A DNA stretch of 64,000 bases from an uncultured delta proteobacterium. Lineage in GTDB: Bacteria; Myxococcota; Myxococcia; Myxococcales; Myxococcaceae. The notes beneath the pieces are model-generated. The model had not been told where the DNA came from and ran no database searches. It saw only the letters and a list, made by a program, of their open reading frames with translations. Position 1 is the stretch's first letter. Each line of letters starts with the position of its first letter. The translations under genes were made by a program, and so were the position numbers. Positions 8,120 through 56,793 of the stretch are shown piece by piece. The stretch spans positions 320,001-384,000 of the forward strand of contig CAVYSY010000026.1 of assembly GCA_963771175.1 (NCBI GenBank). The letters run 5' to 3'.

Positions 8120-11100
8120 CCATCGCTCCTCTCCAGCAGCACCACCGGGAAGCCGGCCAGCAGCGGCGCCAGGGGAAGCACCACGCTCCCCGCCCGACGC
8201 CCCGGCCGGACCTCTCGTCCGGTGAACACATCCCGGAACGACATGCTCGCATAGGACTCGGGCAGATCCAGGGACGTTTCCTCATAGGCCCCAGCAAGGC
8301 CGCTGGGGGACTCCAGGGCCGGGAGCGTGAAGCGCGGTGCGGCAGCGAGGACGACGGCCCGCTCGTACTCGCGGGCGAAGGCCACCACCGCGTCCGCGCG
8401 CGGGCCCACCGCGTCGAGCGCCCGGTAGCCGCCGTGGCGGAAGACGGCCGCCTGGCGCTGGCGCAGGCGCAGGGCCTCGGCCAGCACGAAGAGCTTGATG
8501 CGCCCGTCGTCCATGTCCGCGACCAGCCGCGAGCACAGCCCGAGCCGATCCGCCTCGGCCTCGCGCTCCAGCGCCTCCAGCATGCCGAGCGCGAAGGCCG
8601 TAGTCCACCGGCCGCCGGTTGTCGGGGTCCACGAGGGACAGGTCCCACAGCTCGCAGCCCTGGTAGGTGTCCACCACCCCGGGCGAGCCGAGCTTCATCA
8701 GCAATTGACCCAGTGCGTTGTGCTGCCCGGGCCGCTCGATGCGGCGCTTGAAGGCACGGAGGTCGTCCAGGAAGGCGCGGCTGACGCTCGCGTCCAGGCA
8801 GGCGTCCACGAAGCGCGACACGCCCTCCTCGTAGGCCGGGTCCGGGTTGGTCCAGGAGGTGCGGACCTTGGCCTCCTTGATGGCCTTGAGCATGTAGTCG
8901 CGGACGCGGCGGCGGAGCTCCGCCAGCTCCGCCTCGGAGAGGGACTCGCCCATGGGCCAGACGCCCACCGCCGTCTGGTAGAAGAGGTACTCGTCGTTGC
9001 GGCTGGGGGCGCCGCCCCCGGGGAGCCGCGTGCGGTGCGACGCCGTGAGCTGCGACCAGCGCTGCACCCGCTGGCGCCACTCGTCGGGCACCTCGGAGAG
9101 GACGTTGAGGCGCGCCCGCACGTCCTCGCTGCGCTTGGTGTCGTGCGTGCTGGTGGTGAGCATGCTCGCCGGCCAGTGCTCCGCGCGCTCCTGGTTGCGC
9201 AGGTGGAAGGTCGGCGGTGGTGCCGAAGTGCTCCGGCTCCCCGCCCACCTCGTTGAGGGCGACGAACCGGGTGTAGATGTAGAAGACGGTGTCCTCGAGC
9301 CCCTTGGCCATCACGGGGCCCGTCACCTGCTGGAGCTTCATGGCGAAGCGCAGCATCTCCGCCCGCTCATGAGGCCCCAGGTGCCCCGGGTAGCGCCGCA
9401 GCAGCACGTCCCGCAGGAAGTCGAAGATGGTGGCGTTGAGGGTGGCGTTGCGCTCCTTGGCGCGCTGCGAGCGTCTCCTGGATGTAGCGCACGTCGCGCT
9501 CGTCCAGCTCCGGCCGCCAGTCGTCCACGTAGGTGCGGTAGACCGGGAAGAGCGCGATGAACTCGGCCAGTGCCCGCCGCAGGCTGTTGAGGGTGAAGTC
9601 GCGCGTGCGCCGGTTGATCTCCGAGACGCGGTTGAGCCGGTGGGCGAGCATGTTCAGCTCGCTCGACATGAAGTCGCGCAGGATGAGGCGCTTCTTCTCG
9701 TAGACCAGCTCGTCGAAGTCCGGCGACTGGCCGATGAAGCGGTGGTACGTCTCCGTCAGCGGCTCCCGAGCGTCCGGCCGGACGAAGATGCCGCACACCA
9801 CGTTGGCGAAGCGGTAGCCGGTGGTGCCGTGCACCGCCCAGCCCTCGGGGATGCGCTCGCGGCCTCCCTGAATCTTCTCCACCACCACGTAGAGCGCCTT
9901 GCGCAGTGGCGAGTCCAGGCGCGCCCCCGCCTCCGCCTGCCAGCGCTCGCGCAACCGCAGCTCCACCTCTGGCCAGAGCGCCGCCTGGGCCCCGTGCTCG
10001 GCCTCGAAGACGGCCCGCGCCCGCTCCAGGAAGTACTGCTCCTGCAGGTTGAGGAAGTAGGCCGTCGGATCGAAGAGCCCGTCCGGGTGATCGATGCGCA
10101 GCCCGGTGACGCAGCCCTCGCCCAGCCAGTCGAAGATGCAGCTGGTGCGCCTCGTCGAAGACCTCCGGGTCCTCCACCCGGATGGCGGCCAGCCCGTTGA
10201 TGTCGAAGAAGCGACGGTAGTTGATCTCCTCGCCCGCCACGCGCCAGTGGGCCAGCCGGTAGCTGCACCCCTCGAGCAGCGCGTCCAGCTCGTCGAAGCT
10301 GCGCGGGTCGCCCGGACGGCCGTTGAGGGCCTCCACGTTGGCGGCGATGTGGTCCGCCACCGCGAGGCTGGACTGGACGAGGGCCGCCAGCCGGCGCTTG
10401 ATGACCTCCTTCTCGCGGTTGCGCTCGACGACCTTGGCGCGCTCGGTCTCGGTGCGAGCGGGCAGGTGGTGGATGGCGGTGAGGATGGAGTGGCAGCTCG
10501 AGGAGGTGCGGCTCCTCCGCGCCCAGCCGGCCCTCCAGCCCCTCCAGGTTGCGCCGCAGCACCCGCTCGTACTGCCGGGGAGCCACCGGGAAGCAGCCGG
10601 TCGTAGTAGTGGATGAAGAAGGCGCCGTCCCGGAAGCCCAGCTCGCAGCTCGCCCCGCTCGAGCACCACGCCGTACTGGTCCCCGAGCACCGGCAGCAGC
10701 ACCTTGTCCAGCAGCTCCTCCTTCACCGGATGCCAGTCGATGTCGAAGAAGCGCGCGTAGAGGGACGCGGGGCCGTTCTCCAGCACGTCGAACCACAGCG
10801 GGTTGAGGCGCTCGATGCCCATGTGGTTGGGCACCACGTCCAGGACCTGACCCAGGCCCTGCTGCGCGCACGGCGGAGCAGAAGGCCGCGTGCTCCTCGG
10901 GCGAGCCCACCTCGGGGTTGAGCTGCTTGTGGTCCACGCAGTCGTAGCCGTGCGTGCTGCCCGGGCGTCGCCTTGAGGTAGGGCGAGCAGTACACGTCCG
11001 TCACCCCCAGCCGCGCCAGGTAGGGCACGACCTCCCGCGCCGCGGAGAAGGGGAAGCCCTTGTGCAGTTGCAGCGCGATAGGTGGACAGGGGCGTGGCGC

Positions 11101-11203
11101 GCCCCAGCAACTCCTCCCGCACGCGCGAGTACACCGTTCCGGCCAGGGCCTCCGCGCCCCTCCCGCCCACCTCACCCGCTACGTCCATCCCCTCGAGTCG
11201 CAT
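8116..11203 (-). CDS. treY: Malto-oligosyltrehalose synthase (frameshifted)
   Basis: [77 protein letters not shown]. Confidence 0.93.
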
Positions 11204-11366
11204 GGCCCCCGTCGTAGGCGCACCGCGCCACACTGACCACCACGACGAGGCCGTTCCGCCAGCTATCCAACGCTCTCCGAGCTTCCGAGCCCGCAAGTGC
11301 AGAGGGCCCGCCACTCTCGTGACGAGCCCTCCGAAGGACAGCAACCGGTCATCCCGGAGATGCGGC

Positions 11367-11703
11367 TCAGCTCAGCTGCTTGTTCACCAGCGCCGTCATC
11401 TCGAACATGGTGACGGACTTCTTCCCACCGAAGATGGGCTTGAGCTTGTCGTCGGCGTTGATCTGCCGCTTGTTCTTCGCGTCCTGGAGGTTGTTCTTCT
11501 TGATGTAGTCCCAGATCTTGCTTGACGACCTCGGTGCGCGGAAGCGGCTTGTTCCCGACGATCTCCGCCAGAGCGGCGGACGGGGTCATCTCCTTCATGA
11601 ACGCGGCGTTCGGCTTGCGCTTGGCACCAGCGGCCTTCTTGGCGGCAGGAGCCTTCTTGGCGGCAGGGGCCTTCTTCGCGGCGGTGGTCTTCTTGGCGGC
11701 CAT
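11367..11703 (-). CDS. SWIB/MDM2-domain protein with Lys/Ala-rich N-terminus
   Basis: AAKKAP repeats followed by [39 protein letters not shown] (one frameshift). Confidence 0.85.
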
Positions 11704-28888: not shown

Positions 28889-30055
28889 TCAGGCCGGCTG
28901 CTTCACCATCTGCGGCCGCTTCTCGAAGGCCGCCAGCGTCTGGGCGATCTCCTGGTTCACCTGGCGCAGCAGGTCCTGCTTCTCGCGGAACGGCAGGAAG
29001 GCGCTCTTGAAGCCGGAGACGATGATGGTGGTCAGGTCCTCCAGCGACAGCCCCAGCTGCTTGTGCGCGACCCACAGCTCCTTCGTCACCGTGGTGTCGG
29101 TGATGAGCCGGTTGTCGGTGTTGATCGTCACCCGCAGGCCGTAGTCGAAGTAGAACTTCAGCGGGTGCGCCTCCAGGCTCGACACCGCGCCCGTCTGCAC
29201 GTTGGAGGTGGGGCACACCTCCAGCGGAATGCGGTGGTCGTTCACGTAGTTGAGCAGGTCGCCGTCCTCGCGCAGCCGCGTGCCGTGGCCGATGCGGTGC
29301 GCCCCCAGGTAGTGGATGGCCTGGGAGATGGACTCGGGCCCGAAGGCCTCGCCCGCGTGCGCCGTGCAGTTGACGTTGTTCTTGAGGATGAGCTGGAAGG
29401 CCTCCTTGTGGTCCTTGGCCGGGAAGTTCGCCTCGGCGCCCGCCAGGTCGAAGCCGATGACGCCCCGGTTCTTGTAGGCCACGCGACAGCTCCGCCAGCC
29501 GCATCGACGTCTGCGGGTTGATGTGGCGGATGCCGCAGACGATGACGCCGTATTTGGATGCCCGTCTCGCGCTTGGCCACGCCGCAGGCCCTCGAGCACC
29601 GAGTCGATGACCGTCGTCATCTTCAGGCCCTGCTGCAGGTGCAGCGCCGGCGAGTAGCGCACCTCCAGGTAGCGCACGTTCTCGGCCGCCGCGTCCACCG
29701 CCAGCTCGTAGGCCGAGCGGTAGAGCGACTCGGCCGTCTGCAGCACCGACAGCGTCACGTCGAAGGCCACCAGGTAGTCCTCGAGGCTCTTGCACACCTT
29801 CGCCCATGTGGATGGCCTTGGCCAGGCCGTCCTCGGTGTCCGCGGGCAGCTTCACCTTCTGCTGCTCGGCCAGCTCGAGGATCGTCTTGAGCCGCATGCG
29901 AGCCGTCGAGGTGGCAGTGCAGGTCCGTCTTGGGCAGCGCGTGGAGCAGCTCCTCGGTCACCGGGAGGGTCGGGGGCGCGGACCAATCAGCCCGTGCGAG
30001 CGGATGAGGGAATACCAGTCGAGCTGGGGAGCTCGTCGTCGCGAATCGAAGCCAT
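28889..30055 (-). CDS. add: Adenosine deaminase (frameshifted)
   Basis: LPKTDLHCHLDGS, GFDLAGAE, TAHAGE, HRIGHG, EVCPTSN, INTDN. Confidence 0.92.
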
Positions 30056-30109
30056 GTCGGGTTCCTTCCTTGCCAAGCATCCTAGGGGTCTGAAAATCCT
30101 CGCTCAACC

Positions 30110-31180
30110 ATGCCGTCATCCCTCTGTCAGCGCCTCGTCTTACAGCTCGCCATGGCGGCGCTGATGGCCGCCTGCCGGCAGCCCACCGACAAGCTCTTCG
30201 CCTTCTCCTCCGATGCCCCCTCCCGGGCGGCGCTCGTCCCCTTGGAAAACGGGGTGCTGGTGGGCAACGAGGCCGGCCGGCTCCTGCGCCTGGACCTCGC
30301 GGGCGAGTCGCCCTGGAAGGTGGAGCTCGGACGCGAGGTGGCCGCGCGCCCCACGGTGTCGGGGGACGGCGTCATCGTAGGAACGGTTGGCGGAACGCTC
30401 GTCAGCCTCGCGCTCGACCAGGGCACGGAGCGCTGGCGCCTCACCGGGCAGCCGCCCGTGCTCACCCCGCTCGTCTCGGATGCGAGCGCCGTCTACGTCG
30501 TGGCCCCGGACGGCACCGTGCGCGCCCATGCCGTGGACTCCGGCGAGGTGCGCTGGCGGCGCCCGTTCCCCTCGGGTGCGCCCCGGCCTCGATGCCACCC
30601 GGCCCCTCCCCTCCCCCGTCCTCGCGGGCGGCCTCGTGGTGGTGGTGCTCGGGGACGCGGGACTGTTCGCGCTGGCGCCGCGAGGATGGCGCGGTGCGTT
30701 GGCGCCGGCCACTGGCCCAGGTGCTGGGACTGGAGGCCCAGGGGGACGTGCTGTACGTCTCCACCCGGAAGGGGGAGGTGCTCGCGCTCGGGCTCGCGGA
30801 CGGGCAGGTGCGCTGGCGGCAGACCCCCGCGCCCGTCCTCACCAGCCCGCCGAGCTTCGCCCTGGGACAGGTGTGGGTGGGCGCGGAGGACAACCTGCTC
30901 CTGGCCCTGTCGCCCCAGGATGGGCGGGAAGTCTCGCGCATCGGCCTGCCCGCGCCCCTGGTGACGCAGGTGGCGGAGTACCGCGAGTGGTTGCTGGTGC
31001 CCACGCGCGGCAGCCAGGGGTGGCTGATCGCGCTCGAGCCCGGAAAGGGGCCTCCGGTCTTCTCGCTGCGGCTGGACACGCCGCTGCTCACCCGGCCGGT
31101 GGTGCATCGGGGACCAGCTCTTCGTGCTGGGCCAGGACGGGCGCGTGCTGTCGTGGCGGCTCCAGCCCCCGAAGTCGTGA
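30110..31180 (+). CDS. PQQ-like beta-propeller lipoprotein (frameshifted)
   Basis: Lipobox LMAAC; repeated A.D..G.VRW blade motifs. Confidence 0.8.
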
Positions 31181-45010: not shown

Positions 45011-46627
45011 TCAGGCGACATCCGAGGCGAGTGCAGTCCTTCTCACCGGGCTGACGCCCGCGGCGCCCACCCCGAGCTCGGCGGCGAGTGCCTCCAGGGC
45101 GGCGGGAGCGATGCGCGGATCCTGCCGCAAGTGACCCAGCGCGCGAGCCGATTCGGCCGCTCCGGGCTCGGCACTCTGCACCTGGACGACGAAGGCCGAT
45201 GCGCACAGCAGGGCTCTCGCGGCACACCCCGCGGTGGAGGCGGAGTCGCGCCCCGCGAGCAGCACGGCGGAGAGGATCTCATTCACCTCCGGGAGCGCAC
45301 CGCCCGCCAGGGTACGCACGCGCGAGAGTGTGGGGAGGATGAAGCGCCGGGGCTCCTCCAGCCGCGCGGCGAGCGCGAGCGTGCGGGCCGCCGTAACGGC
45401 CAGCATCTCCTCGCCATCACCGCCGCCCAGGTGCGCCACACAGCGGCGCGTGAGCCTTACCAGCAGCGGAGCCAACGCCGCGCTGCCTCCAATCAAACCC
45501 AGGGCCTCGTCGAGCAACCGCGCGTGACAGTCCTCGATTCGCGCGGGCAAGGGCCGCACGGGCGCCTCCACTCGCGCCACGGGAGGCTCCTCGAAGGCCG
45601 CGTCCGGAGGAGGTGGAGGCTCCACGGGGAGCAGCACCGGCGGAGGACCCGCGTGGCTCCGCTTGCCTGGCTCCGTCCGAGCAACGGGGAACAGCACGGG
45701 CGGACGCAGTGGGGTCCTGTCGCAGAGAGAGAGCTCCTCGCCAGCCGCACCGGCCAGGTCCTCCGAGAGAATCGAGCGGCGCTCGGGGAAGATCCGGGCG
45801 AAGAGACTGGCGATGTCGAGCTGGTCCACGCAGAGCTGACGCTCCTCGAGGAAGCGACGCAGGATGTCCGAGAGCTCGCGCGCCGAACGGAGCCGGGCCT
45901 CGGGATCCGCTGCGAGGGCGCGGAGCAGCACGGTCCAGAGCGACGGCGGACACCCGGGCAGCGGCTCCAGGCCGCGCTCGTCGAAGGCGCCGATCTGCTG
46001 GACGACCTGGGGAGAGTCCTCGAAGAGGGGCCGCCTGGCGAGCAGCTCGTAGAGGATCGACCCGAGGCGGAAGACGTCGCCGCGGGCCTCCACGAGGCGA
46101 CCTCGGGCCTGCTCGGGCGTGAGGTAGCGGGGCTCGCTCCGGACCCCCCCCGGGTCCACGAGCTTCACTTCACCAAGGCTGGAGATCCACACCAGGGAAG
46201 GCTGGAGGCCACGGTGGCCAGAGCGTGCGCGATGCAGATGGGCGAGGCCCTCGGCCACCTGCTGCACAATGAAACACACCTCGCGCAGCCCGATCGCCCC
46301 CCCGCGCGCCCCCACCTCATCCAGCAGGGAGTGCAGGTTCTCTCCGTCCACGAGCTCCAAGACCCGGCAGGGCTGGCCGTTGCTCACGCCCGTGCCCAAC
46401 ACCCGCACGACATTCGTGTGCGGGAGCGCGGCGGACGTCCTGGCCGAGCCCAGGAAGAGCTCGACGAAGATGACATCCCGCGCGGACTCGGGCAGCAGGC
46501 GCTCGATGCACACGGGCATCTCCGCCCCCTCGGCATCCACCGCCTTACCGAGGAGCACCTCGGCCACGGCGTTTCGCGACAGCGTCCGAACGATGCGATA
46601 GGTCCCCACGAGCGCCCCCAGCCCCAC
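45011..46627 (-). CDS. Ser/Thr protein kinase-fold protein lacking catalytic residues (pseudokinase)
   Basis: Kinase framework (LPHTNVVRV, LELVDGENL, YLTPEQARG, DVFRLGSILYELL) but VCIERL, HRGLQPS and LVDPG in place of VAIK, HRDxKxxN and DFG. Confidence 0.75.
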   Translation of the reverse strand: MGLGALVGTYRIVRTLSRNAVAEVLLGKAVDAEGAEMPVCIERLLPESARDVIFVELFLGSARTSAALPHTNVVRVLGTGVSNGQPCRVLELVDGENLHSLLDEVGARGGAIGLREVCFIVQQVAEGLAHLHRARSGHRGLQPSLVWISSLGEVKLVDPGGVRSEPRYLTPEQARGRLVEARGDVFRLGSILYELLARRPLFEDSPQVVQQIGAFDERGLEPLPGCPPSLWTVLLRALAADPEARLRSARELSDILRRFLEERQLCVDQLDIASLFARIFPERRSILSEDLAGAAGEELSLCDRTPLRPPVLFPVARTEPGKRSHAGPPPVLLPVEPPPPPDAAFEEPPVARVEAPVRPLPARIEDCHARLLDEALGLIGGSAALAPLLVRLTRRCVAHLGGGDGEEMLAVTAARTLALAARLEEPRRFILPTLSRVRTLAGGALPEVNEILSAVLLAGRDSASTAGCAARALLCASAFVVQVQSAEPGAAESARALGHLRQDPRIAPAALEALAAELGVGAAGVSPVRRTALASDVA

Positions 46628-46756
46628 ACCTGCCCGTCTCCCCGAACACTCTCGGGGCCGGGCAACCTGGGCATCGCTAGGAAGCTAGGAAGCTCGCCTG
46701 GACCGGCACCCCGCCCTGAGGTTGGGATTGCCCGCCTTGCAGTGGACATCTCCCGC

Positions 46757-47185
46757 CTAGGGCGCGGTCATGAGGCCCAGCACCTTCGCGCCTGCCGACT
46801 TCGCCCCGTCGAGCGCGGCCACCACCCTACCGTAGGGAGCGCGATCATCCGCCGTGAAGAACAGGACTCTGTCCTGCACGGGCATGGCGGCAAGGATGCG
46901 TGTCAGGCGCGGGACATAGTCCGCCTCGCTGACGGGCTCGTTGTTGAGGGTAAGCAGCCCCTCGGGGCTGATGGCCACCACCACCTGCTGGGTCTCTCGT
47001 GGCGCCTCGCTCGGCGTCTCTTCCTCTGTCAGAGGGAGCTTGACGTCGATGTCCTTCTCCATGAGCGGTGTCACCACCATGAAGATGATGAGCAACACGA
47101 GCACCACATCCACGAGAGGGGTGACGTTGATGTCCGCGTTCGCGTGGCCTTGAGGAAGAACGAAGGCCTTCTTGTGGGTGCGCAT
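46757..47185 (-). CDS. ExbD/TolR family protein
   Basis: DINVTPLVDVVLVLLIIFMVVTP, ADDRAPYGRV. Confidence 0.9.
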   Translation of the reverse strand: MRTHKKAFVLPQGHANADINVTPLVDVVLVLLIIFMVVTPLMEKDIDVKLPLTEEETPSEAPRETQQVVVAISPEGLLTLNNEPVSEADYVPRLTRILAAMPVQDRVLFFTADDRAPYGRVVAALDGAKSAGAKVLGLMTAP

Positions 47186-47198
47186 CGTGGACCTCCCG

Positions 47199-47618
<420 letters not shown>

Positions 47619-47734
47619 GAGGGTCCGCGCTCCTTCGTGAGGGGGAGAAAGCAAGACCACCGTACGCGGCCACACGAGGGCGTTGGCCGGCATGCCCTCA
47701 TGCTTCCGTCATGGTTTCGTCATCTCCGCCGACC

Positions 47735-47798: not shown

Positions 47799-49567
47799 AT
47801 GACCACCCAGAACCAGACCACCCCCACGCTCCCCGAGGCCCAGCGCGGCCCGGCGGAGAAGCTCCTGGACCTCGTCCTCGGGGGCTCCGCGCACCTGTGG
47901 CACAACCGCCCGGGCCTGGACGTGAACGGCGTCTGGCACCCGGCCCAGGCGGCGAAGCCGGACCTCGTCCGCCGCGGCACCCCGGTGAAGCCCGGCCTCT
48001 TCGTGCCCGCCGCGGTGAAGCTCTACGGCCAGCTGCTGGACATCTACCGGCTCAACACGGACCTGATGGCGCACTTCGCCTCCTACGCGCTCACGCAGAC
48101 GGACTGGCGCGATCTCAAGGTGGCCACCTGCGCGCTGATGCTCGTGCAGAGCCACTCCGGGCAGCCCGTGCGCGAGGACGACGGCTCCATCGCGTTCCAC
48201 GACGACGACTTCCGCGCCATCGGCGAGGCCATGCTCCTCCACTACGAGCGCAAGTCCACGCGCATGCTCACGCCCAAGGCGGTGCTGCGGGTGGCCGAGC
48301 TGCTCGAGACGCCGGAGATCGCCCGCCTCAACCGCGAGGCCGGCTTCGGTGACCCCGCGTCCCGCAAGCCGCCGCTCGGCCGCTGGAAGCGCGTGGCGAC
48401 GAAGTGGCTGCGGCTGCGCGAGCAGAACCTGCCCATGCTCCAGGGCCTGGTGAAGGCCGGCTACAAGGAGACGCTCAAGAGGATCGCCCGCAAGGCCGGT
48501 TACAAGCCGGTGTCGCAGGCCTTCTTCGAGGTGCTCGGCTGGAAGCAGAAGCAGGCGGCCGCGGGCCACCGCTCGGTGGGCCTGGAGGGACTCAAGCTCG
48601 TCAAGCGGGAGCGCTTCGACGGGCTCTCGGAGGCGGAGATCTGCGAGTGGATCGAGCTGGAGCGCCTCTCCTACAAGGAGGTGGTGGGCCGGCTGCCCAA
48701 GGACCTGGGCCTGACGCCGGCCATCATGGCGGCGCTCCTGCCCTCGCTGTCGGACCGCGACTTGCGCATGCTGACGCCCACGCTCGAGGAGCTGGGGCTG
48801 ATGTCCGACCCCGCGATCCGCGCGCGCTGGGAGAAGGCGGTCGCAGACGGCGACCGACCAGCGCGCGCTCCACATCGCGAAGAACGTCCGCAGCCAGGAG
48901 CTGAAGGCGAAGCTGGAGGAGGCGAGCGACAACGCGGCGAAGGCGGCGGTGGCGGAGGCGACGGCCGAGACGGACGTGAGGGTGATGTTCCTCATCGACA
49001 AGTCGGGCTCCATGGAGGGCGCCATCGAGCAGTCCAAGGAGGCGCTGTCGCGCATCCTCGCCGGCTTCCCGCTGGAGAAGCTGCACATCGCGTCGTTCGA
49101 CACGATGGGCACGGTGCTGAAGCCCAAGGCGGCGAGCCGGGCGGCGGTGCAGCACATGCTCGCAGGGGATTCAGGCGTCGGGCGGCACGACGCACGCGGC
49201 CGGTGTGCATGCGCTGCACCGGGCGGGAGTGCGGGTGCCGGAGGAGGCGAAGCTCGTCGTCATCGTCGTGGGTGACGAGGCCGGCGAGGCGGGTGACCAG
49301 TTCGCCCGCGCCTTCCGCGAGTGCGGCTACAGCGTGGCCGCCATGGCGCTGCTGGTGAGCGTGGCCAGCACGCGGGGCAGCACCGTGCGCACGTGCGCGG
49401 CGCAGCTCCGGGTGCCGTTCAGCGAGGTGCAGGTGGACCAGTTCGAGGACCCGTACCAGGTCCCCCGCGTGCTCAAGGCGCTGATGGACGCGCCGACGGC
49501 GACCGGGGCCAGCCAGTCCGGCTGGGTCGAGCGGGTGATGCGCACGCCGCTGCTGAAGGTGGCGTGA
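47799..49567 (+). CDS. Large helical N-domain + C-terminal vWA domain protein (frameshifted)
   Basis: MIDAS motif FLIDKSGSMEG, then GGT and VVGDE elements; frameshifts near 48845 and 49165. Confidence 0.8.
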
Positions 49568-49574
49568 GAGAGGA

Positions 49575-50575
49575 GTGGGTGTCGTGGACTACCGGAAGTT
49601 CCTCGGGAAGGTGGAGTCGGCGGTGCTGCCCTACTTCGGCGGCGCCTCCGTCGACGCGGCCTCGCGGCGCCTCCGCGTGTCCACGCCGCCCGCTCCGGGC
49701 TGGTGGCGCTTCGACGTGCAGGGGCGCACCGCCACCGCGCGGGAGCCGGCCGAGCCGGAAGGGCTCGACGGGCTCCCGCTCATTCGTGGACATCTCTGGG
49801 GCTCGCGGTTGGTGCGCGAGGGCGCGGTGGCCGAGCCGGTGAAGCTCCTCCCCGAGGAGGAGCCGCCGCGCTTCTCGCCGCTGCGCGCCCGGCGCTGGCA
49901 TGACGGGACGCTCGTCTTCGAGGGGCTCGACTTCGAGGGCGAGGCCGAGGGCACCGCACGCCTCCTGTTGGAGGAAGGCCGGGCGCTCGCGGAGGTGAAG
50001 GCCGTGCCGGCGTCGCTGCGGGCGGCCTTCGGTTACGCGGTGCTGGAGGGTGCCTCGCGCGCGCTCGGCATCCGCTTCTCCCCGGTCGAGGTGCGTGGAC
50101 AGGTGCTGTCCGTGTCCGAGGGAGGCCGTCCCGCGGCCGAGGCCCGGCTGCGGGCCCTGGCCGCCGAGCGCGAGGCCCACGTGCGGGCAGTGGAGGCACG
50201 GCCACGGGCGCGTGGAGGTCCAGCGGCAGCGGGCGGTGGAGGAGGTCCGGCTGCAGGCGGAACTGGCGCGACTGCGGAGCCAGCCGCGTCACCTGCAGCA
50301 GCAGGCGCAGGGGGCCGTGCGGGTGGAGCGGGCGTTGGAGGCGGCGGGGGCGCGGCTGCTCGACACGCGGCGGCTGGGGAGCGAGCGGCTCGAGGTGACG
50401 TTCGGCTTCATGGGCGAGCGCTTCATCAGCATCGTCGAGGCGAGACACGCTGCAGGTGGTGGACGCGGGCATCTGCCTCGCGGGAGCGGACCGGGAGGTG
50501 ACGCTGGAGAGCCTGCCGTCGGTCATCCGCGAGGCCATCGAGGACGACGTGCTGGTCATCACCCGGCACGCGTGA
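49575..50575 (+). CDS. Hypothetical protein with coiled coil and C-terminal E2-like DAGICL motif (frameshifted)
   Basis: Joined frames end ...LEVTFGFMGERFISIV...LQVVDAGICLAGADREVTLESLPSVIREAIEDDVLVITRHA*. Confidence 0.6.
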
Positions 50576-50585
50576 GGGCCTTCCC

Positions 50586-51048
50586 ATGGACAAGCGCGAG
50601 GTCTGCCTGCTCATCGGCCGGGACGGGACGGTGCTGTGGAGCGATGCCTCGGACAGTCCCGTGCTGGCTGCCGGACTCGCGCGCACGCTGGGAGGCCATC
50701 TGGCGGCTGCGCGACGAGCTGGAGGAGATTGCTCACAGCCACCCGGTGGGACCGCTGGGCTTCAGCGCCGAGGACGAGACGACGATGGCGGCGCTCACCG
50801 AGGCGCTCGGACGGCCAGTGCGCTTCTCGGTGGTGGCGCCCGACGGCATGGTGGTGCGCGAGGACGGTCGAGACTTCATCGTCACCGAAGAGCCCGCCTG
50901 GGCCGGACACATGCGGGCCGACTCCGGAATGAGCTCCCTCGACCATCCGGCGGTAACCGCACCTCCTCTCCGCCCTCCAGAAGGTGACACTCGTCGGTTC
51001 GACGGAGACTTCTTCGAGGCGCATGAGCCGGTAGGATGCGGCGCGTGA
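50586..51048 (+). CDS. JAB/MPN metallo-isopeptidase (frameshifted, end uncertain)
   Basis: N-terminal REVCLLI (catalytic Glu) and AHSHPVGPLGFSAED (HxH-x7-S-x2-D JAMM motif). Confidence 0.8.
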
Positions 51049-51308
51049 GCGCGAACGAGCACGACGATGAGGGACGGACGGATCGCTGGCAGAGCCTCGT
51101 GACAGGGGCCTTCCTGCTCGAGGAGTCGCTGAAGGCAACCCCTCCCCCGAGTGACACACGGCCCCCCAGAGCGCTCGCGGTGAGCTACCTCGACAGCGTG
51201 CTGGAGGTGTTCCCCTCCAGCGTGGACCCGGTCGAGGACTTCGAGGGCTACGCCATCCGGCGGATGGCGCTCGCCCTGCGCCGGGCCCTGGAGGAGAGCG
51301 GACGCTGA
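51036..51308 (+). CDS. Small hypothetical protein
   Basis: GC3-rich ORF of 90 aa following the JAB gene. Confidence 0.5.
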   Translation: MRRVSANEHDDEGRTDRWQSLVTGAFLLEESLKATPPPSDTRPPRALAVSYLDSVLEVFPSSVDPVEDFEGYAIRRMALALRRALEESGR

Positions 51309-51324
51309 GCGCTCCGGGCCGGGC

Positions 51325-51985
51325 TCACACCGGACGGAGCTCGGAACGGTAGCCGCCCTGCTCGACGGGAGGCTGGGTCCCGAGCTTCTGCTCGACGGCC
51401 TTCACGCCGAAGGCGCTGGGGTCGAGCTGGTCGCGGCCGGAGAAGACGCCGCGGGCGCGGCCCAGCAGCCACCCGAGGCCCTTCACCGCATCCCGGAGAA
51501 TCCGGATGGGCGCCGCGCGCGACATGAGCGGCGGGCTGAGCTGGTCGAGCTCCTCGCCCTTCAGGGTCATCTCCTTCACCCCCACGCCTTGCGAGTACAC
51601 CATCTCCGCCGCCCAGCCAGCCGGTATAGGAGGCGAAGGCGAACGCGCCCAGTCCCAGGAGGGTGGAGAGCAGAGAGGGACGGTGGCTCGCCCGCCATGT
51701 GGCGACCCCGAAGGCCCCCAGCACGATGACGACGTTGCCGAGCCCGTGCAGGAACATCATGTCCTTGGAGTGCTTGTCGGTCTTCACCTCCTGGGAAGCG
51801 GCCATCCCGGCCAGACCCGCGAGCAGCCCGCCCGCCGCGACGCTCCACCACAGCGTCCGGCCCGCCCGGTCCAACCTCCGGTCCTGGCTGAACGTCGCCG
51901 CCAGGTCGACGATGACCGTGGACGGCAACAGCGCCAGTGGAGCGTGAATCAACATCGGGTGCAGCTCGTGTACGCGCGTTTCCAT
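51325..51985 (-). CDS. DUF2231-type membrane protein (frameshifted)
   Basis: LHPMLIHAPLALL, AGLAG, FLHGLGN, YTGWLGG.MVY..GVGV. Confidence 0.75.
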
Positions 51986-52177
51986 GGGCTTCCTCCTCGT
52001 CCAGGGAACCTTGGGGCACGCGGCCCCACTGGCAACCCGCCCGCCTGTCCGTCGGGAGTCACGGTTCCCGACGGAGGAGCATCCGCGGGGGAGGGCAGGC
52101 GAGGCGGCAGCCCCCTTGTCGGGGAGGACGGGCGTGGGCAGACCCCGGGCACGGGCGCGCTGCCCCAGGAGGGCTCG

Positions 52178-52394
52178 GTGAAATCCGCGGGGCTGATGCT
52201 GGTGCTGGCGGGGCTCGTCCTCGCCGTCGTGGGGCTGCTGGTGTACTCGGGCGCGCTGTCCTGGTTCGGCCGCCTGCCGGGCGACCTGCGCTGGGAAGGC
52301 GAGCACACCCGGCGTCTACGTCCCGCTGACCTCGATGCTGCTGCTCTCCGTGCTGCTCAGCTTGCTGGCCTTCGTGGTGCGCCGGCTCCTCTAG
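52178..52394 (+). CDS. DUF2905-type small membrane protein (frameshifted)
   Basis: WFGRLPGDLRWE...YVPLTSMLLLSVLL. Confidence 0.75.
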
Positions 52395-52516
52395 CTCCAG
52401 GGCCTCGCGATGCGCGCGTGCATTCGTCGTGTGGAGTTCACTCGGCGCCGACAACACTTGGGTGCTGGCGCACAGTGACTAGGCTTGCACTCGCTCACCT
52501 TCAGGAGGAGCACTGG

Positions 52517-52999
52517 ATGACGAACGAGTCACGCCCGCCGCAAGAGGCCGAACAGCAGAACACGGCCGAGCTGATGGCCCCGCCCACCACCCCTTCCATG
52601 GGCCAGCGCCCCGCCTCCGTGACGCCCACGGGCCGGGCCGGTGCCCGGCGGAAGATGGGCAAGACGGGGCCGGCGGCCAAGAAGGGCCGCACCGTCGCGA
52701 AGCGCAAGCCGGAGAAGAAGCGCCCCGCCAAGCAGGCGAGGGGGGCGGCGGCACGCAAGACCACGCGTGCTGGCGCGACCAGCAGCTTCCGCAAGAAGGA
52801 GGGCTGGAAGTCCGAGGCCACGGTGGGCGGCCGCAAGCCCTCCGCCTCGCAGAAGAAGGGCCCCACCAAGAAGGCAGGTCCAGCCCGGAAGACCGTGGCC
52901 CGGCGCGCCACCGCCGCCAGGACCGCCACCGGGCGAGGCACGGCCGCGAAGCGCACCACCGCGAAGCGCACCACCGCGAAGCGCACCACCCGCCGCTAG
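52517..52999 (+). CDS. Lys/Arg/Ala/Thr-rich histone-H1-like basic protein
   Basis: AGGAGG RBS; low-complexity basic sequence; AKRTT tandem repeat x3. Confidence 0.6.
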   Translation: MTNESRPPQEAEQQNTAELMAPPTTPSMGQRPASVTPTGRAGARRKMGKTGPAAKKGRTVAKRKPEKKRPAKQARGAAARKTTRAGATSSFRKKEGWKSEATVGGRKPSASQKKGPTKKAGPARKTVARRATAARTATGRGTAAKRTTAKRTTAKRTTRR

Positions 53000-53015
53000 G
53001 CGCCCTCCCCGCTCC

Positions 53016-54761
53016 TCACGGCCTGACACCAGGAGGGGCCTGGAGGCGTCGCCGCTCGAGCACCCGCCGGAATCCGCTCTCCTTCTCGGAGGAGACGCAC
53101 ACCGCGTGGCCGTCGAGCACGCCACACACCACCGACTCCGGGTGGCGCAGGAAGGGCGCCAGGTACGCGGGGTGGACCACGTAGACGCTCTCGGGTTGGA
53201 ACTCGCCGCGCCCAGCCTCCTGCTGGAGCGCGGTGCAGTAGGCCTGGGCCCGGGCAGGGTCCACTCGCGCGAGGTATGCGCTGTTGAAGGTCATCCCCAG
53301 GGAGGCCGCCTTGTACGCGAACATGGGAGTGAAGGGCGCGCCGGCTCCGGGGTGCGGACAGCCTCGGCCGTTCCCGTCGTGGAGCTGCGGCGGGAACAGC
53401 ACGAGGTGGCGGTAGTCGTCCTTCATCCGGTCCCACTCGGGCGAGCGCAGGGCGTTCCAGGACTGGCCCTGGAAACGCTCCTGGGCCACGGCCGGGCCGA
53501 GGTCGAACATCTGCACGCCCACGGCGAGAGCGAGCAGCCCCGTGCCCACCCACGGTCGGCGGCGCCACGCACCCAGCACGAGCGCGAGCGCCCCCGTCAG
53601 CAAGGCGTAGTGCAGCGGCCAGATGAAGCGCCCCGAGGAGCGGAACGGCTCCACGAGCCGCATCACCGGCCCGTAGAGCCCCTGCAGGTCCAGCACCGGC
53701 CGACCCGCGAAGGTGACGCGCGAGGAGAGCGCGAACACGCCCAGCAGGAAGCAACCCACCGCCAGGGGCAGCGCGCGCTTCCACTGGGGCGTCCACTCCG
53801 AGTGCCGCGCCAGCCGCGACACCAGCGCGGAGCCCACGCCCAGCCCGAGCAGGAGCAGCACGCCCAGGCCCAGGTAGCCGAAACCCTCGTACTGGCCGCG
53901 CGCCGTGTTCAGGGTGGGCAGCAGCCGGGACCAGCCCATGGGATTGACGAGCGTGAGCAGGTCCGACGAGACATCACCGAAGCCCTCGATGCCGGCCGGG
54001 GTGCTCGTGCCCACGTAGCCGAGCAGCCAGAAGAGGCCCAGCAGGAGCGCGACGAGCCCCCCCAGGGAGAGTCCCACCCCACGCCAGGAGAGCGTCCCGT
54101 CCACCAGACGCAGCCGCAGCAGCGCCGCCGCCGCCAGCACCAGCCCCATGGCGGACAGGTACGGGTGGATGGTGGCGCTCAACGCCATCAGGAGGAACAT
54201 CACCGCCACGGCGCGCCGCGCCCCCGCCCGGTCCGGCCAGTCGCGCAGGTTCACCCAGAAGAGCCCGAGCAGGAGCCAGTGCGCGCAGAGGCTGTCATGC
54301 CCCAGGCGCCACATCAGCACGGGCGCGAGCGCGAAGAGCGCGCCTCCGAGAAAGTGCGCGGCCAGGTTCGGGGTGAAGAGCGCCGTCAGCCGGGCACCCA
54401 GATAGCCCTGGAGGGCGAAGCACAGCGCGAGCCAGGGGCCGATGTACTGGAACGGGAACGGCAGCAGCCCCGCGAAGGGCCGCAGCAGCAGGGCCACCAG
54501 GGGGATGGAGTCCATGTAGCCCAGGGTCGTCCCGAGCGGGTGCGCCAGACCGGGCACGGCCCCGAGGGGAAGCCCCAGCAGCGGCTCGTTGCGGAAGAAG
54601 AGCCAGCCCGTGAGGTGCTGGGACCAGTCGCCCACCATCAGCCAGTCCACCTGGCCCGGGTTCAGCGTCCGGTCTCCATGACTCAGGATGAACCAGAGCA
54701 CGCCGAAGGCCGCCGCCAGCAACGCGGGCAGGTGCTCCCGCCCCCGCTGCCACACGTTCAT
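53016..54761 (-). CDS. Polytopic membrane protein (GT-C-like, DUF6311 type)
   Basis: GDWSQHLTGWLFFR, GYMDSIP, FQYIGPW, QYEGFGYLGLG, FRSSGRFIWP. Confidence 0.65.
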   Translation of the reverse strand: MNVWQRGREHLPALLAAAFGVLWFILSHGDRTLNPGQVDWLMVGDWSQHLTGWLFFRNEPLLGLPLGAVPGLAHPLGTTLGYMDSIPLVALLLRPFAGLLPFPFQYIGPWLALCFALQGYLGARLTALFTPNLAAHFLGGALFALAPVLMWRLGHDSLCAHWLLLGLFWVNLRDWPDRAGARRAVAVMFLLMALSATIHPYLSAMGLVLAAAALLRLRLVDGTLSWRGVGLSLGGLVALLLGLFWLLGYVGTSTPAGIEGFGDVSSDLLTLVNPMGWSRLLPTLNTARGQYEGFGYLGLGVLLLLGLGVGSALVSRLARHSEWTPQWKRALPLAVGCFLLGVFALSSRVTFAGRPVLDLQGLYGPVMRLVEPFRSSGRFIWPLHYALLTGALALVLGAWRRRPWVGTGLLALAVGVQMFDLGPAVAQERFQGQSWNALRSPEWDRMKDDYRHLVLFPPQLHDGNGRGCPHPGAGAPFTPMFAYKAASLGMTFNSAYLARVDPARAQAYCTALQQEAGRGEFQPESVYVVHPAYLAPFLRHPESVVCGVLDGHAVCVSSEKESGFRRVLERRRLQAPPGVRP

Positions 54762-54912
54762 CCCAGCTCCACCTGTGTTCCCCATCGGTCCCCCCCTTAG
54801 CGGAAAGGCGAGCCGAAGCGTACCGCCTTCCCGTGGGCCCGGCGGGCCATCGGCCGCGCCCCGGACTCCGAGGCGGTGGACGGGCCCCGGAGGTCTTGCC
54901 ATCGTCCGGGCC

Positions 54913-55858
54913 ATGCGAATTGCTCGTCTGCTGACCCTCTCCGCGCTGGCGTTCGCGGCCCCCGCCGCTCGCCGCCCCCCCCAAGGGAAAGACCACCATG
55001 ACGAAGCCCTCCGAGACAAAGCCCTCCGAGACGAAGCCGCCCGACCTCGAGGCCGAGACGCGCGCCTGGCACCAGAAGCGCATCGCGAGCCTCACGTCCG
55101 ATGATGGCTGGCTCACCCTGGTGGGGCTGCACTGGTTGAAGGAAGGCGCCAACGACTTCGGCTCCTCGGAGGAGAACGAGTGCGTCTTCCCCGCGGGGAC
55201 GCCGGCGCGCATCGGCACCCTCACCCTGAAGGGCGGCAAGGTGACGCTGGCCGTCGCGCCGGGAGTCACCCTCACCCGGGCCGGCCAGCCCTTCACCGGA
55301 GGCGAGCTGCGCGACGACTCCGACGGCACGCCGGATGTGCTCTCGCTGGGGACGCTGCGCTTCTTCGTCATCCGCCGGGCAGAGCGGATTGGCATCCGGG
55401 TGAAGGACTCGGAGGCCGAGGCGCGCAAGAAGTTCCACGGCATCCCCACCTACCCGGTGAGCGCGGCCTGGCGCGTCGAGGGCCGCTTCGAGCCGGCGGC
55501 CACGCCCCGGAAGCTGTCGGTGCCCACGATGCTCGGCACGGTGGAGGAGATGAACTCGCCGGGCACGGCGGTGTTCACGGTGAACGGCCAGGAGTACCGG
55601 CTGGACGTCACGCAGGAGCCCGGGGACCCGCAGCTCTTCATCATCTTCTCGGACCTGACCAACCGCACGGAGACGTACGGCGCGGGCCGCTTCCTGTACG
55701 CGGACCTGCCCCGGGACGGGAAGGTGGTGCTGGACTTCAACCAGGCCTACAACCCCCCGTGCGCCTTCTCGCCCTACGCGACGTGCCCGCTGCCTCCGCC
55801 GCAGAACCGTCTGAAGCTGCGCGTGGAGGCCGGCGAGAAGCGCTACGGCGACCACTGA
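54913..55858 (+). CDS. DUF1684 family protein (frameshift after signal peptide)
   Basis: GWLTLVGLHWL, ETYGAGRFL, LDFNQAYNPPCAFSPYATCPLPPPQN. Confidence 0.88.
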
Positions 55859-55860
55859 GT

Positions 55861-55890
55861 CGTCAGGAACACCGTCCGCCTCACGTCTCC
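55861..55890 (+). promoter_or_regulatory. Putative ECF promoter of the Ubl-E1 operon
   Basis: CGTCAG-GAACACCGTCCGCCTCA-CGTCTCC (17-nt spacer). Confidence 0.65.
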
Positions 55891-55955
55891 CAAGCGGAAA
55901 ACCCGGCCGGGCCGAGCCCTCGGTCCGGGCCGGAGTGGACGCGAGGAGGCGTGAC

Positions 55956-56201
55956 ATGGCGACGCTGAACATCACCTACAACGGGCTGTCCTCGGACCTG
56001 CCGCTGGAGCTGGACGGCCACGTGGCGGACGTGGACGTGCGGCGCATCGCGGTGGAGGTGGTGCGCTCGGGCGGGGCGCCGGGGCTGCACATCGCCAACC
56101 TGCGCGAGGACGCCTTCGCCCACTACGTGGTGGACCGGTTCCGCGGGCCCCGGGGCGAGGAGCGCATCTACCTGCGGCCCAAGGTGCCCTTCGGGGCGTG
56201 A
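55956..56201 (+). CDS. Putative ubiquitin-like (beta-grasp) protein, 81 aa
   Basis: GAGGAGG RBS; N-terminal beta hairpin (ATLNITYNGLSSDL), helix, C-terminal IYLRPKVPFG-A; immediately upstream of the ThiF gene. Confidence 0.65.
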   Translation: MATLNITYNGLSSDLPLELDGHVADVDVRRIAVEVVRSGGAPGLHIANLREDAFAHYVVDRFRGPRGEERIYLRPKVPFGA

Positions 56202-56214
56202 GGGAGGGCCCACC

Positions 56215-56793
56215 ATGCGCATCGTCTTCTGCGGAGTGGGGGCCATCGGCTCCACGGCGGCGGTGCTGTGCCGCAACCTGGAGGCGACGCTCGTCTTCAT
56301 CGACTTCGACCGGGTGGAGTCCAAGAACCTGCTGGCGCAGGCCTTCGTGAAGCCCTCGGTGGGGAAGAACAAGGCGGAGGCGCTGAAGCTCCAGTTGCTC
56401 AACCTGCACGGGGTGAAGGCCGAGGCCTTCGGCGTGCGGGTGACGCGGGACAACGTGGCGGCGCTGTGCGGGAGCGCGGACCTGCTCGTCGACTGCTTCG
56501 ACAACCAGGAGAGCCGGCTGCTGCTGAGCGGGTTCGCCCGGAGCGCGGGCAAGCCGCTGGTGCACGGGGCGCTGGCGGCGGACGGCACCTTCGGGCTGGT
56601 GCGCTGGGACGAGCGCTTCGTCCCGGACGCCGAGGACACCGTGGGCCAGGCCACCTGCGAGGGCGGCGCGCACCTGCCGCTCATCGGCCAGCTCGGCGCC
56701 ACGCTCGCACGGGTAGTGCAGGACTTCGTGAAGCACGGCACTCGCCGTGACGCGATGGTGAGCCTCGTGGCGGTGACGCCGACCGCGAGCTGA
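56215..56793 (+). CDS. ThiF/MoeB/E1-like adenylyltransferase
   Basis: CGVGAIGS, IDFDRVESKNLLAQ, GKNKAEA, VDCFDN; candidate Cys in ATCEG. Confidence 0.88.
   Translation: MRIVFCGVGAIGSTAAVLCRNLEATLVFIDFDRVESKNLLAQAFVKPSVGKNKAEALKLQLLNLHGVKAEAFGVRVTRDNVAALCGSADLLVDCFDNQESRLLLSGFARSAGKPLVHGALAADGTFGLVRWDERFVPDAEDTVGQATCEGGAHLPLIGQLGATLARVVQDFVKHGTRRDAMVSLVAVTPTAS

Follow-up and report, generated by a model that had tools for sequence, protein, structure and literature searches.

A candidate ubiquitin-like cassette of Myxococcaceae combines a ThiF-type E1 and a JAB peptidase with a vWA protein and a protein with one near-invariant cysteine

The locus and its five genes

We analysed a stretch of 64,000 nucleotides (nt) from an uncultured delta proteobacterium of the family Myxococcaceae (assembly GCA_963771175.1, contig CAVYSY010000026.1, positions 320,001 to 384,000 of the forward strand). 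This whole stretch is called the window, and positions are counted from its first letter. The DNA is that of an Archangium-type myxobacterium. The gene under study, gene X (49584..50575, + strand), codes for a protein of 329-332 amino acids (aa), which in this assembly has to be read in three successive frames. It is the second gene of a cassette, the ancestral order of which is a protein with a von Willebrand factor A (vWA) domain, X, a JAB/JAMM peptidase, a small protein with a Gly near its end, and a ThiF-type E1. We rate this cassette as a bacterial system of E1, ubiquitin-like protein (Ubl) and JAB peptidase with two undescribed obligatory partners, namely the vWA protein and X. Our tentative proposal is that X acts in it as an E2-like thiol carrier, or as an E2/E3 hybrid, that is not of the UBC type.

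Gene 1 (47799..49567, + strand) codes for a vWA protein of about 589 aa. Its C-terminal vWA domain is of the metal ion-dependent adhesion site (MIDAS) type with the motif DKSGS, and VWA_2 was matched both by the piece in the window and by intact orthologues. The N-terminal region comprises about 380 aa, and Pfam contained no family for the N-terminal 347 aa. A TROVE/Ro60-like N-terminus, which had been suggested by appearance, was dropped because Pfam gave nothing. Gene 3 (50586..51048, + strand) encodes a small JAB/JAMM peptidase with the signature H-S-H-x7-S-x2-D; the general motif H-x-H-x7-S-x2-D is read here as HSHPVGPLGFSAED. The piece in the window matched Prok-JAB (PF14464) with an E-value of 0.0084, the Archangium orthologue P0002 reached 20.5 bits (below the cut-off of 25), and the orthologue of locus L043 reached 30.5 bits.

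Gene 4 (55956..56201, + strand) is intact and encodes an 81-aa protein ending in ...RPKVPFG-A, a putative ubiquitin-like modifier. The stretch ...RPK[VT]PFG is invariant, with Gly80 present in all 31 sequences compared (31/31); between 0 and 16 variable residues come after it. A Gly with a variable tail is the arrangement expected of a modifier that is trimmed by a JAB peptidase. Gene 5 (56215..56793, + strand), likewise intact, encodes a ThiF/MoeB-type E1-like adenylating enzyme of 192 aa with an invariant Cys in the motif TCEGG. It contains the nucleotide-binding and the D-x-x-D-N-x-x-x-R elements, and five orthologues matched ThiF (PF00899) with E-values of 4.6e-21 to 3.8e-24. MoeB and ThiF are its closest relatives (PDB chain 1jw9_B, E 4.3e-11; ThiF/MoeB models of NCBIfam). 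The invariant residue, Cys148, is found in 32 of 32 sequences and aligns with Cys187 of E. coli MoeB. With a length of 190-221 aa, in most cases 190-206, the E1 consists of the ThiF domain only. PADLOC reported nothing for X, the vWA protein and the small protein; the E1 matched only the E1 part of its 'E1-E2' models.

The arrangement of the genes was compared in 43 loci. The vWA gene (590-760 aa) is directly upstream of X in 42 of them, the 43rd locus beginning inside X, and the JAB gene (122-131 aa) is directly downstream of X in all 43. The gaps between these three genes measure 8-60 nt. Within the flanks examined, the small protein was found in 22 and the E1 in 21 of the 43 loci; the pair follows JAB immediately in 12 loci and lies 3-6.6 kb further on in 10 more. 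In Archangium, the genes of the small protein and the E1 are located 4.9 kb downstream of JAB, and in more distant Myxococcota all five genes are contiguous. 

Reading frames of gene X and origin of its frameshifts

The first frame of X (open reading frame (ORF) from 49575) reads VGVVDYRKFLGK...AAEREAHVRAVEA and runs to about 50210. The second frame, ...VEVQRQRAVEEVRLQAELARL...RLEVTFGFMGERFISIVEA, ends at about 50444, and the third, TLQVVDAGICLAGADREVTLESLPSVIREAIEDDVLVITRHA*, terminates with the stop codon at 50573-50575. The longest ORF begins with the GTG at 49575. Database orthologues begin at the GTG at 49584, which is preceded by GAGAGGAG, and judging from these orthologues the latter is more likely to be the start. 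The TGC codon of a near-invariant Cys occupies positions 50474-50476 (+ strand) and corresponds to Cys300 of the intact orthologue (...VVDAGICLAG...); the surrounding motif is D-[AS]-G-[IVF]-C-L-x-G-x-D. Both the joined frames and this codon are present in the sequence as an earlier note on this DNA had stated. The joined reading is more than a product of chance, since it matches one uninterrupted ORF of 332 aa in genomes of the same genus. Its N-terminal 207 aa are 86-95% identical in 16 of the 17 other genomes of this genus. When the first 207 residues were used as a query, a single copy was found in 21 of 41 related genomes, in each case as an open frame of 312-380 aa without stops. The G+C content of the window is 69%, and that of third codon positions (GC3) is about 0.9-1.0 in each successive frame of X.

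A DNA alignment with five relatives revealed exactly two extra single bases in the X gene of the window, both of them private. The first, at 50210..50212 (+ strand), leads from frame 1 to frame 2, and the second, at 50443..50445 (+ strand), from frame 2 to frame 3. Compared with the relatives, the flanking genes contain three more insertions of 1 nt: two at about 48842-48846 and 49161-49162, which break the vWA gene in this assembly, and one at about 50663-50666 in the JAB gene. The region 48700-50800 was further compared with contigs of four other public sequencing runs (X20, X1, X2 and X3). At four of the five insertion sites in the vWA, X and JAB genes, the extra base is absent in all four runs. 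At the site near 50211 it is absent in three of the four (X20, X1 and X2), and the X3 contig does not have the gap there. One of the comparison contigs, which is 12.6 kb long, differs by 32 substitutions over 2,097 bases. The closest contig (X20), about 98.5% identical to the window, has a gap of 25 nt at 50204, which is the sum of an in-frame length difference of 24 nt in the coiled coil and the extra base. In relatives, the X protein measures 312-338 aa or more, which shows that the coiled-coil hairpin varies in length.

For a census of indels, the window was compared with syntenic stretches of 80 kb from two relatives of the same genus; 25,889 bases align to both with at least 85% identity. 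In these bases, 24 isolated insertions of 1 nt are common to both comparisons, as opposed to one isolated deletion. Nineteen of the 24 insertions fall outside the vWA-X-JAB locus. These nineteen cluster in a few genes (window positions 8583-11522, 18829, 20812, 29483-31106 and 54907).

The private insertions, the 24:1 ratio of insertions to deletions, the sustained GC3 and the contigs of other runs that do not contain the extra bases point to an insertion-biased assembly error. On the basis of these sequence comparisons, the two frameshifts in X are almost certainly errors of the assembly, and the gene would be intact in the organism. The earlier note had called the site around the Cys 'cryptic' and 'hidden by a frameshift'; this describes the assembly and not the organism, the extra bases being private to the former. 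The assembly is rich in single-base insertion errors, and other frameshifted genes in it are likely artefacts that should be discounted.

Conservation and predicted structure of X

Pfam and NCBIfam contained no family for the intact X orthologue or for the pieces in the window, and a sequence search for relatives of X with known structure found none. A search of 1.84 billion entries assigned 523 cluster representatives to the family at E<=1e-3; at E<=1e-30, 140 remain. In a 90% cluster collection, 662 X clusters were found at E<=1e-5; every named one is a 'hypothetical protein', and none has a Pfam domain. Conservation was determined from an alignment of 82 full-length homologues. These were taken from the 150 best of the 523 representatives, 68 fragments or two-piece matches being dropped.

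Cys300 is the sole conserved Cys of X and lies inside its best-conserved motif. It is kept in 80 of the 82 homologues, the other two having Ala, and is present in 42 of 42 readable genomic loci; as the loci were selected, via an alignment of 13 sequences, by the peptide SLPSVIREA, this set is biased towards conserved C-termini. The Cys is also retained in a copy of X, with 40% identity, from an operon in another family of the phylum. The neighbouring positions of the motif are similarly well conserved (D296, 81/82; G298, 82/82; L301, 78/82; D305, 80/82), and the invariant columns among the 82 sequences are G72, E125, R129, A151 and G298. The two homologues with Ala in place of Cys, P0048 and P0117, also diverge in the remainder of the motif (DPGIATSG and DAGIAPAR) and may, to judge from these residues, be inactive paralogues.

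An AlphaFold2 model of X, calculated with the alignment of 82 sequences, has a predicted local distance difference test (pLDDT) value of 93.5 and a predicted template modelling (pTM) score of 0.88. Beta strands between residues 14 and 118 are followed by helices (123-164), a helical hairpin (174-228 and 239-256), four strands (260-296), the loop with Cys300 and a helix (313-322). Cys300 is placed in the loop between the strand 293-296 and the helix 313-322. The earlier note had predicted an N-terminal domain of no known kind, a coiled coil and a small C-terminal domain, and had named the invariance of the Cys as a check. The model agrees with this architecture (beta-rich N-terminal domain, coiled-coil hairpin, alpha/beta C-terminal domain), and the Cys was found to be as good as invariant, with the counts given above. 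Fused forms of X were not seen among proteins of 582-2000 aa, which is weak evidence. The viral structures of BFVD contained no match to X at E<=0.001, and the ESM Atlas contained no usable one.

Comparison of X with E2 enzymes

In the UBC signature, a Gly is located at position -3 with respect to the catalytic Cys, and the HPN motif is a feature of E2 enzymes upstream of this Cys. The G-x-I-C-L motif, on which the earlier assignment of X to the E2 enzymes had been based, is off by one: X contains A-G-I-C-L with the Gly at -2, whereas the alignment of Prok-E2_B has it at -3 (G-x-[LIV]-C). An HPN-type motif, which the note had not been able to see, is indeed absent, and no His or Asn column that is conserved to at least 75% lies between residues 282 and 300. 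A conserved His of E2 enzymes is mentioned by Iyer et al. 2006 (PMC1779556). Only three residues (A-G-I) separate strand 4 of X from the Cys, and X has nothing that corresponds to the roughly 30 residues, including conserved F-P and P-H elements, in front of the Cys of Prok-E2_B.

UQ_con (PF00179) and the Prok-E2 families of Pfam (Prok-E2_A to E) were not matched at E<=1 by the pieces in the window or by the intact orthologue, and NCBIfam gave no E2 match either. Two alignment profiles of X were compared with all PDB sequences, and no E2 was found at E<=10. By means of hhalign, the same two alignments were compared with ten Prok-E2_B domains collected from Myxococcota genomes, which yielded probabilities of 3.1% (P 0.014) and, for the alignment of 82 homologues, 0.95% (P 0.058). 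The best local alignment spans 27-29 columns and places the Cys of X on the catalytic Cys of Prok-E2_B and the next helix on the next helix; it is not significant. Five fold searches of the PDB, two with the whole model and three with the isolated C-terminal domain, contained no UBC, RWD or UEV chain among the matches listed, 50 per search. The claim that the C-terminal domain of X is a divergent E2 of the UBC type is thus borne out neither by Pfam or NCBIfam nor by the PDB profiles, hhalign or the listed matches of the fold searches. One feature of the UBC/E2 superfamily is shared by X, namely a near-invariant Cys in the loop that follows strand 4 (80/82 homologues, 42/42 loci). An E2-like role of the Cys is still our best functional guess; it is deduced from the gene context and not from homology.

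Distribution and genomic surroundings of the cassette

Of 41 related genomes, 21 contain X, and exactly these also contain the small protein and the E1 (E<=1e-30). Among 301 sampled Myxococcota genomes, the set with X and the set with the small protein are again identical and comprise 89 genomes from 21 of 136 genera. These are 82 of the 115 genomes of the window's family (Myxococcaceae), 5 of 20 of a second family, the single genome of a third (1/1), and the window's own genome. Neither sample contains a genome with only one of X and the small protein. The co-occurrence also holds where the two groups of genes are far apart or on different contigs (genomes G022, G271, G295, G018 and G012); for example, their positions are 1.63 and 3.32 Mb in G022, and 8.45 and 0.93 Mb in G271.

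There is no UBC-type E2 among the five genes of the cassette, and none tracks it. Two of five genomes with the cassette, and 10 of 251 Myxococcota genomes, contain Prok-E2_B, always in Cap2-like ORFs of 557-699 aa that are unlinked to X. UQ_con and Prok-E2_A were found in none of the five genomes (0/5 each); the controls were silent too, and these two results are hence weak. In one genome (G200:C144), the contig that carries X also contains a Cap2-like Prok-E2_B ORF of 625 aa, at a distance of about 5 kb from the modifier-E1 pair. This neighbour may be a coincidence or the sign of a defence-island neighbourhood.

Immediately upstream of the cassette in the window, a Ser/Thr protein kinase of 538 aa and two tandem ExbD/TolR genes, all intact, are encoded on the opposite strand (45011-47693, -). 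The stretch between the JAB gene and the small protein (51036-55900) contains a 90-aa ORF without a family (51036-51308), a DUF6311 membrane protein (53016-55019, -) and a DUF1684 protein (54998-55858). In a Myxococcus locus (L026:4209-4916), the gene of a calcineurin-like metallophosphoesterase is found just upstream of the vWA gene and on the same strand. A complete five-gene cassette is present on a contig of 7.7 kb that was binned as Actinomycetota (L046), which is due either to lateral transfer or to a binning error.

Proposed role of X and alternative explanations

The cassette is complete except for a recognisable E2, and it contains exactly one extra protein with a near-invariant Cys. 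The most economical explanation, which we put forward tentatively, is that X is the carrier. According to this proposal, the JAB peptidase would trim the tail of the small protein and expose a C-terminal Gly. The E1 would then adenylate this Gly and take the modifier onto its invariant Cys148, from where it would be passed to Cys300 of X, in a loop of the C-terminal alpha/beta domain that looks exposed. Finally, X would deliver the modifier to targets, and the vWA protein would probably be the partner that binds either the target or the modifier. MIDAS-type vWA domains bind acidic ligands, and a contact between a MIDAS and a Ubl is known for Rea1. We infer every one of these chemical steps, and likewise that the small protein is a beta-grasp and that the vWA protein acts in this way. 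A complex prediction with two copies of the E1, the small protein (residues 1-80) and X gave a score of 0.01 (mark, 0.32) and speaks neither for nor against binding.

Several observations weigh against a carrier function of X. These are the negative Pfam, NCBIfam and PDB profile searches for an E2, the low hhalign probabilities, the missing HPN-type motif and the two homologues with Ala in place of the Cys. Furthermore, the small protein has no sequence match in Pfam or the PDB, and none of the ThiS, MoaD and ubiquitin models fits it. As the genomes are related and hence not independent, the perfect co-occurrence overstates the statistics and does not amount to a formal one. Finally, Ubl conjugation by an E1 without an E2 is known from the archaeal SAMP/UbaA system, and an E2-like carrier is thus not strictly needed.

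It is possible, if on the whole unlikely, that X is instead a non-catalytic scaffold, an adaptor or a regulated substrate. Its coiled coil and N-terminal domain would hold JAB and vWA together, the E1 alone would conjugate the modifier, possibly onto X or the vWA protein, and the Cys would be structural, redox-sensing or a site of modification. This explanation agrees with the contiguity of vWA, X and JAB (gaps of 8-60 nt in 42-43 of 43 loci) and with the modifier-E1 pair moving off as a unit, a pattern that suggests a physical association of X with JAB and vWA. It is also consistent with the coiled coil in X and with the lack of E2 homology, and E1-only conjugation has a precedent in archaea (excerpts of PMC4443979). 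However, it leaves unexplained why a single Cys is kept in 80 of 82 sequences within the best-conserved motif of X, and why the Cys of the E1 is invariant (32/32).

We consider it improbable that the cassette serves instead as a ThiS/MoaD-type sulfur-carrier pathway, in which the E1 would adenylate the small protein, a thiocarboxylate would form at its Gly, and the Cys of X would relay persulfide sulfur. The E1 is indeed nearest to MoeB/ThiF (1jw9_B and the NCBIfam models), and operons with ThiS/MoaD, JAB and E1 but without an E2 are catalogued as sulfur or siderophore systems in Iyer et al. 2006 (Table 1, rows 4a-4d; PMC1779556). In the operons catalogued there, the E1 carries a fused rhodanese and biosynthetic enzymes are encoded alongside, for example cysteine synthase or CoA ligases, whereas the E1 of the cassette is a ThiF domain only and no such enzyme is conserved nearby. 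Moreover, a vWA protein of 590-760 aa has no obvious place in such a pathway, and the small protein does not match any ThiS/MoaD model.

Decidedly improbable is a minimal UBC/E2 fold in the C-terminal domain of X that has diverged beyond recognition by sequence and fold searches. The core of the UBC fold runs from an N-terminal helix through four antiparallel strands and the Cys flap to a crossover helix, with two more helices beyond it, and the same core order is found in X (helix 239-256, strands 260-296, Cys loop, helix 313-322). In addition, the best local hhalign alignment places Cys on Cys, and one member of Prok-E2_B reads DGFLCLGGGD where X reads DAGICLAGSD. These similarities are opposed by the hhalign probabilities of 3.1% and 0.95% and by the missing UBC, RWD and UEV chains among the matches listed in the five fold searches. 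Furthermore, about 30 residues of Prok-E2_B (strand 4 and the PH/HPN loop before the Cys) have no counterpart in X, and the domain comprises only about 95 aa and lacks helices 3-4.

That vWA, X and JAB are true pseudogenes of a cassette decaying in this strain is barely credible: five frameshifts do lie within 3.2 kb covering these three consecutive genes, with the modifier and E1 genes intact, but the same type of isolated insertion occurs at 19 further sites of the window with a ratio of 24:1 to deletions, GC3 does not fall below about 0.9 after any of the shifts, the 98.5%-identical contig and three other runs do not contain the insertions (all four at four of the five sites, three at ~50211), and the assembly has a completeness of 81.7% in only 58 contigs.

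Comparison with known systems

Several known systems are close to the cassette. Bacterial operons with E1, E2, JAB and Ubl (class 6d of Iyer et al. 2006, PMC1779556; Bil-type, PMC10557695) are similar, as far as the excerpts of these two papers describe them, in having a JAB/JAMM peptidase, a Cys-containing E1 of the ThiF type, a small protein with a Gly followed by a removable tail, and a second Cys protein. The cassette differs from these operons: no test run identified its second Cys protein as an E2 with a UBC fold, a large vWA protein is obligatory, and the E1, with 192 aa, comprises nothing but the adenylation domain. The cassette also differs in being a single-copy element of many Myxococcaceae genera (82 of the 115 sampled genomes of the family) that is not obviously located on mobile defence islands. 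With the Prok-E2_B family (PF14461), which occurs in the Cap2-like E2-E1 fusions of CBASS, X has in common the pattern D-[GA]-x-[LIV]-C-[LF] and the helix after it. The conserved P-H and F-P elements of that family and its C-terminal Y-W helix are missing from X, and the hhalign probability is 1-3%.

Archaeal SAMP/UbaA/HvJAMM1 systems are not known to have an obligatory extra Cys protein or a vWA partner; they resemble the cassette in combining E1, Ubl and JAMM without a UBC E2 (see also the excerpted text of PMC4443979). The operons of ThiS/MoaD, JAB and E1 (Iyer et al. 2006, Table 1, rows 4a-4d; PMC1779556) share with it a MoeB/ThiF-like E1, a JAB peptidase and a Gly-ended small protein with a tail. 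Compared to them, the cassette has no rhodanese fusion, no biosynthetic enzymes and no ThiS/MoaD signal, and it contains the vWA protein and X. The operons presented in the excerpted portions of Iyer 2006 (PMC1779556) and Kaur 2020 differ from this cassette. No description of it was found in the open full-text literature; subscription-only work, for example Burroughs et al. 2011-2012, was outside this scope. By analogy only, JAB, vWA and an E2-variant or coiled-coil scaffold are also brought together in the eukaryotic complexes BRISC and BRCA1-A (BRCC36, MERIT40, BRCC45, Abraxas) and, with Rpn11 and Rpn10, in the proteasome.

Significance

Ubl conjugation in bacteria was shown experimentally only recently, for CBASS Cap2/Cap3, Bil and Bub. 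To our knowledge, the carrier is a UBC-fold E2 in all of these systems. The cassette is present in about three quarters of the sampled Myxococcaceae genomes, and an unnamed protein with one near-invariant Cys and a vWA protein stand in it where a UBC E2 would be expected. It is conceivable, though rather doubtful, that X is the first E2-type Ubl carrier on a non-UBC fold, in a vertically inherited, chromosomally fixed tagging pathway of social myxobacteria, and that the module of vWA, coiled coil and JAB is the equivalent in bacteria of the deubiquitinase assemblies with JAB and vWA that eukaryotes possess, for example BRISC or the proteasome lid. If X is not the carrier, there would still be an undescribed system of five genes, the components of which are all annotated as 'hypothetical'. 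If, however, the Cys of X does carry the modifier, the E2 step would have been invented twice, and Myxococcus xanthus would offer a genetically tractable model of a housekeeping-type tagging system in bacteria.

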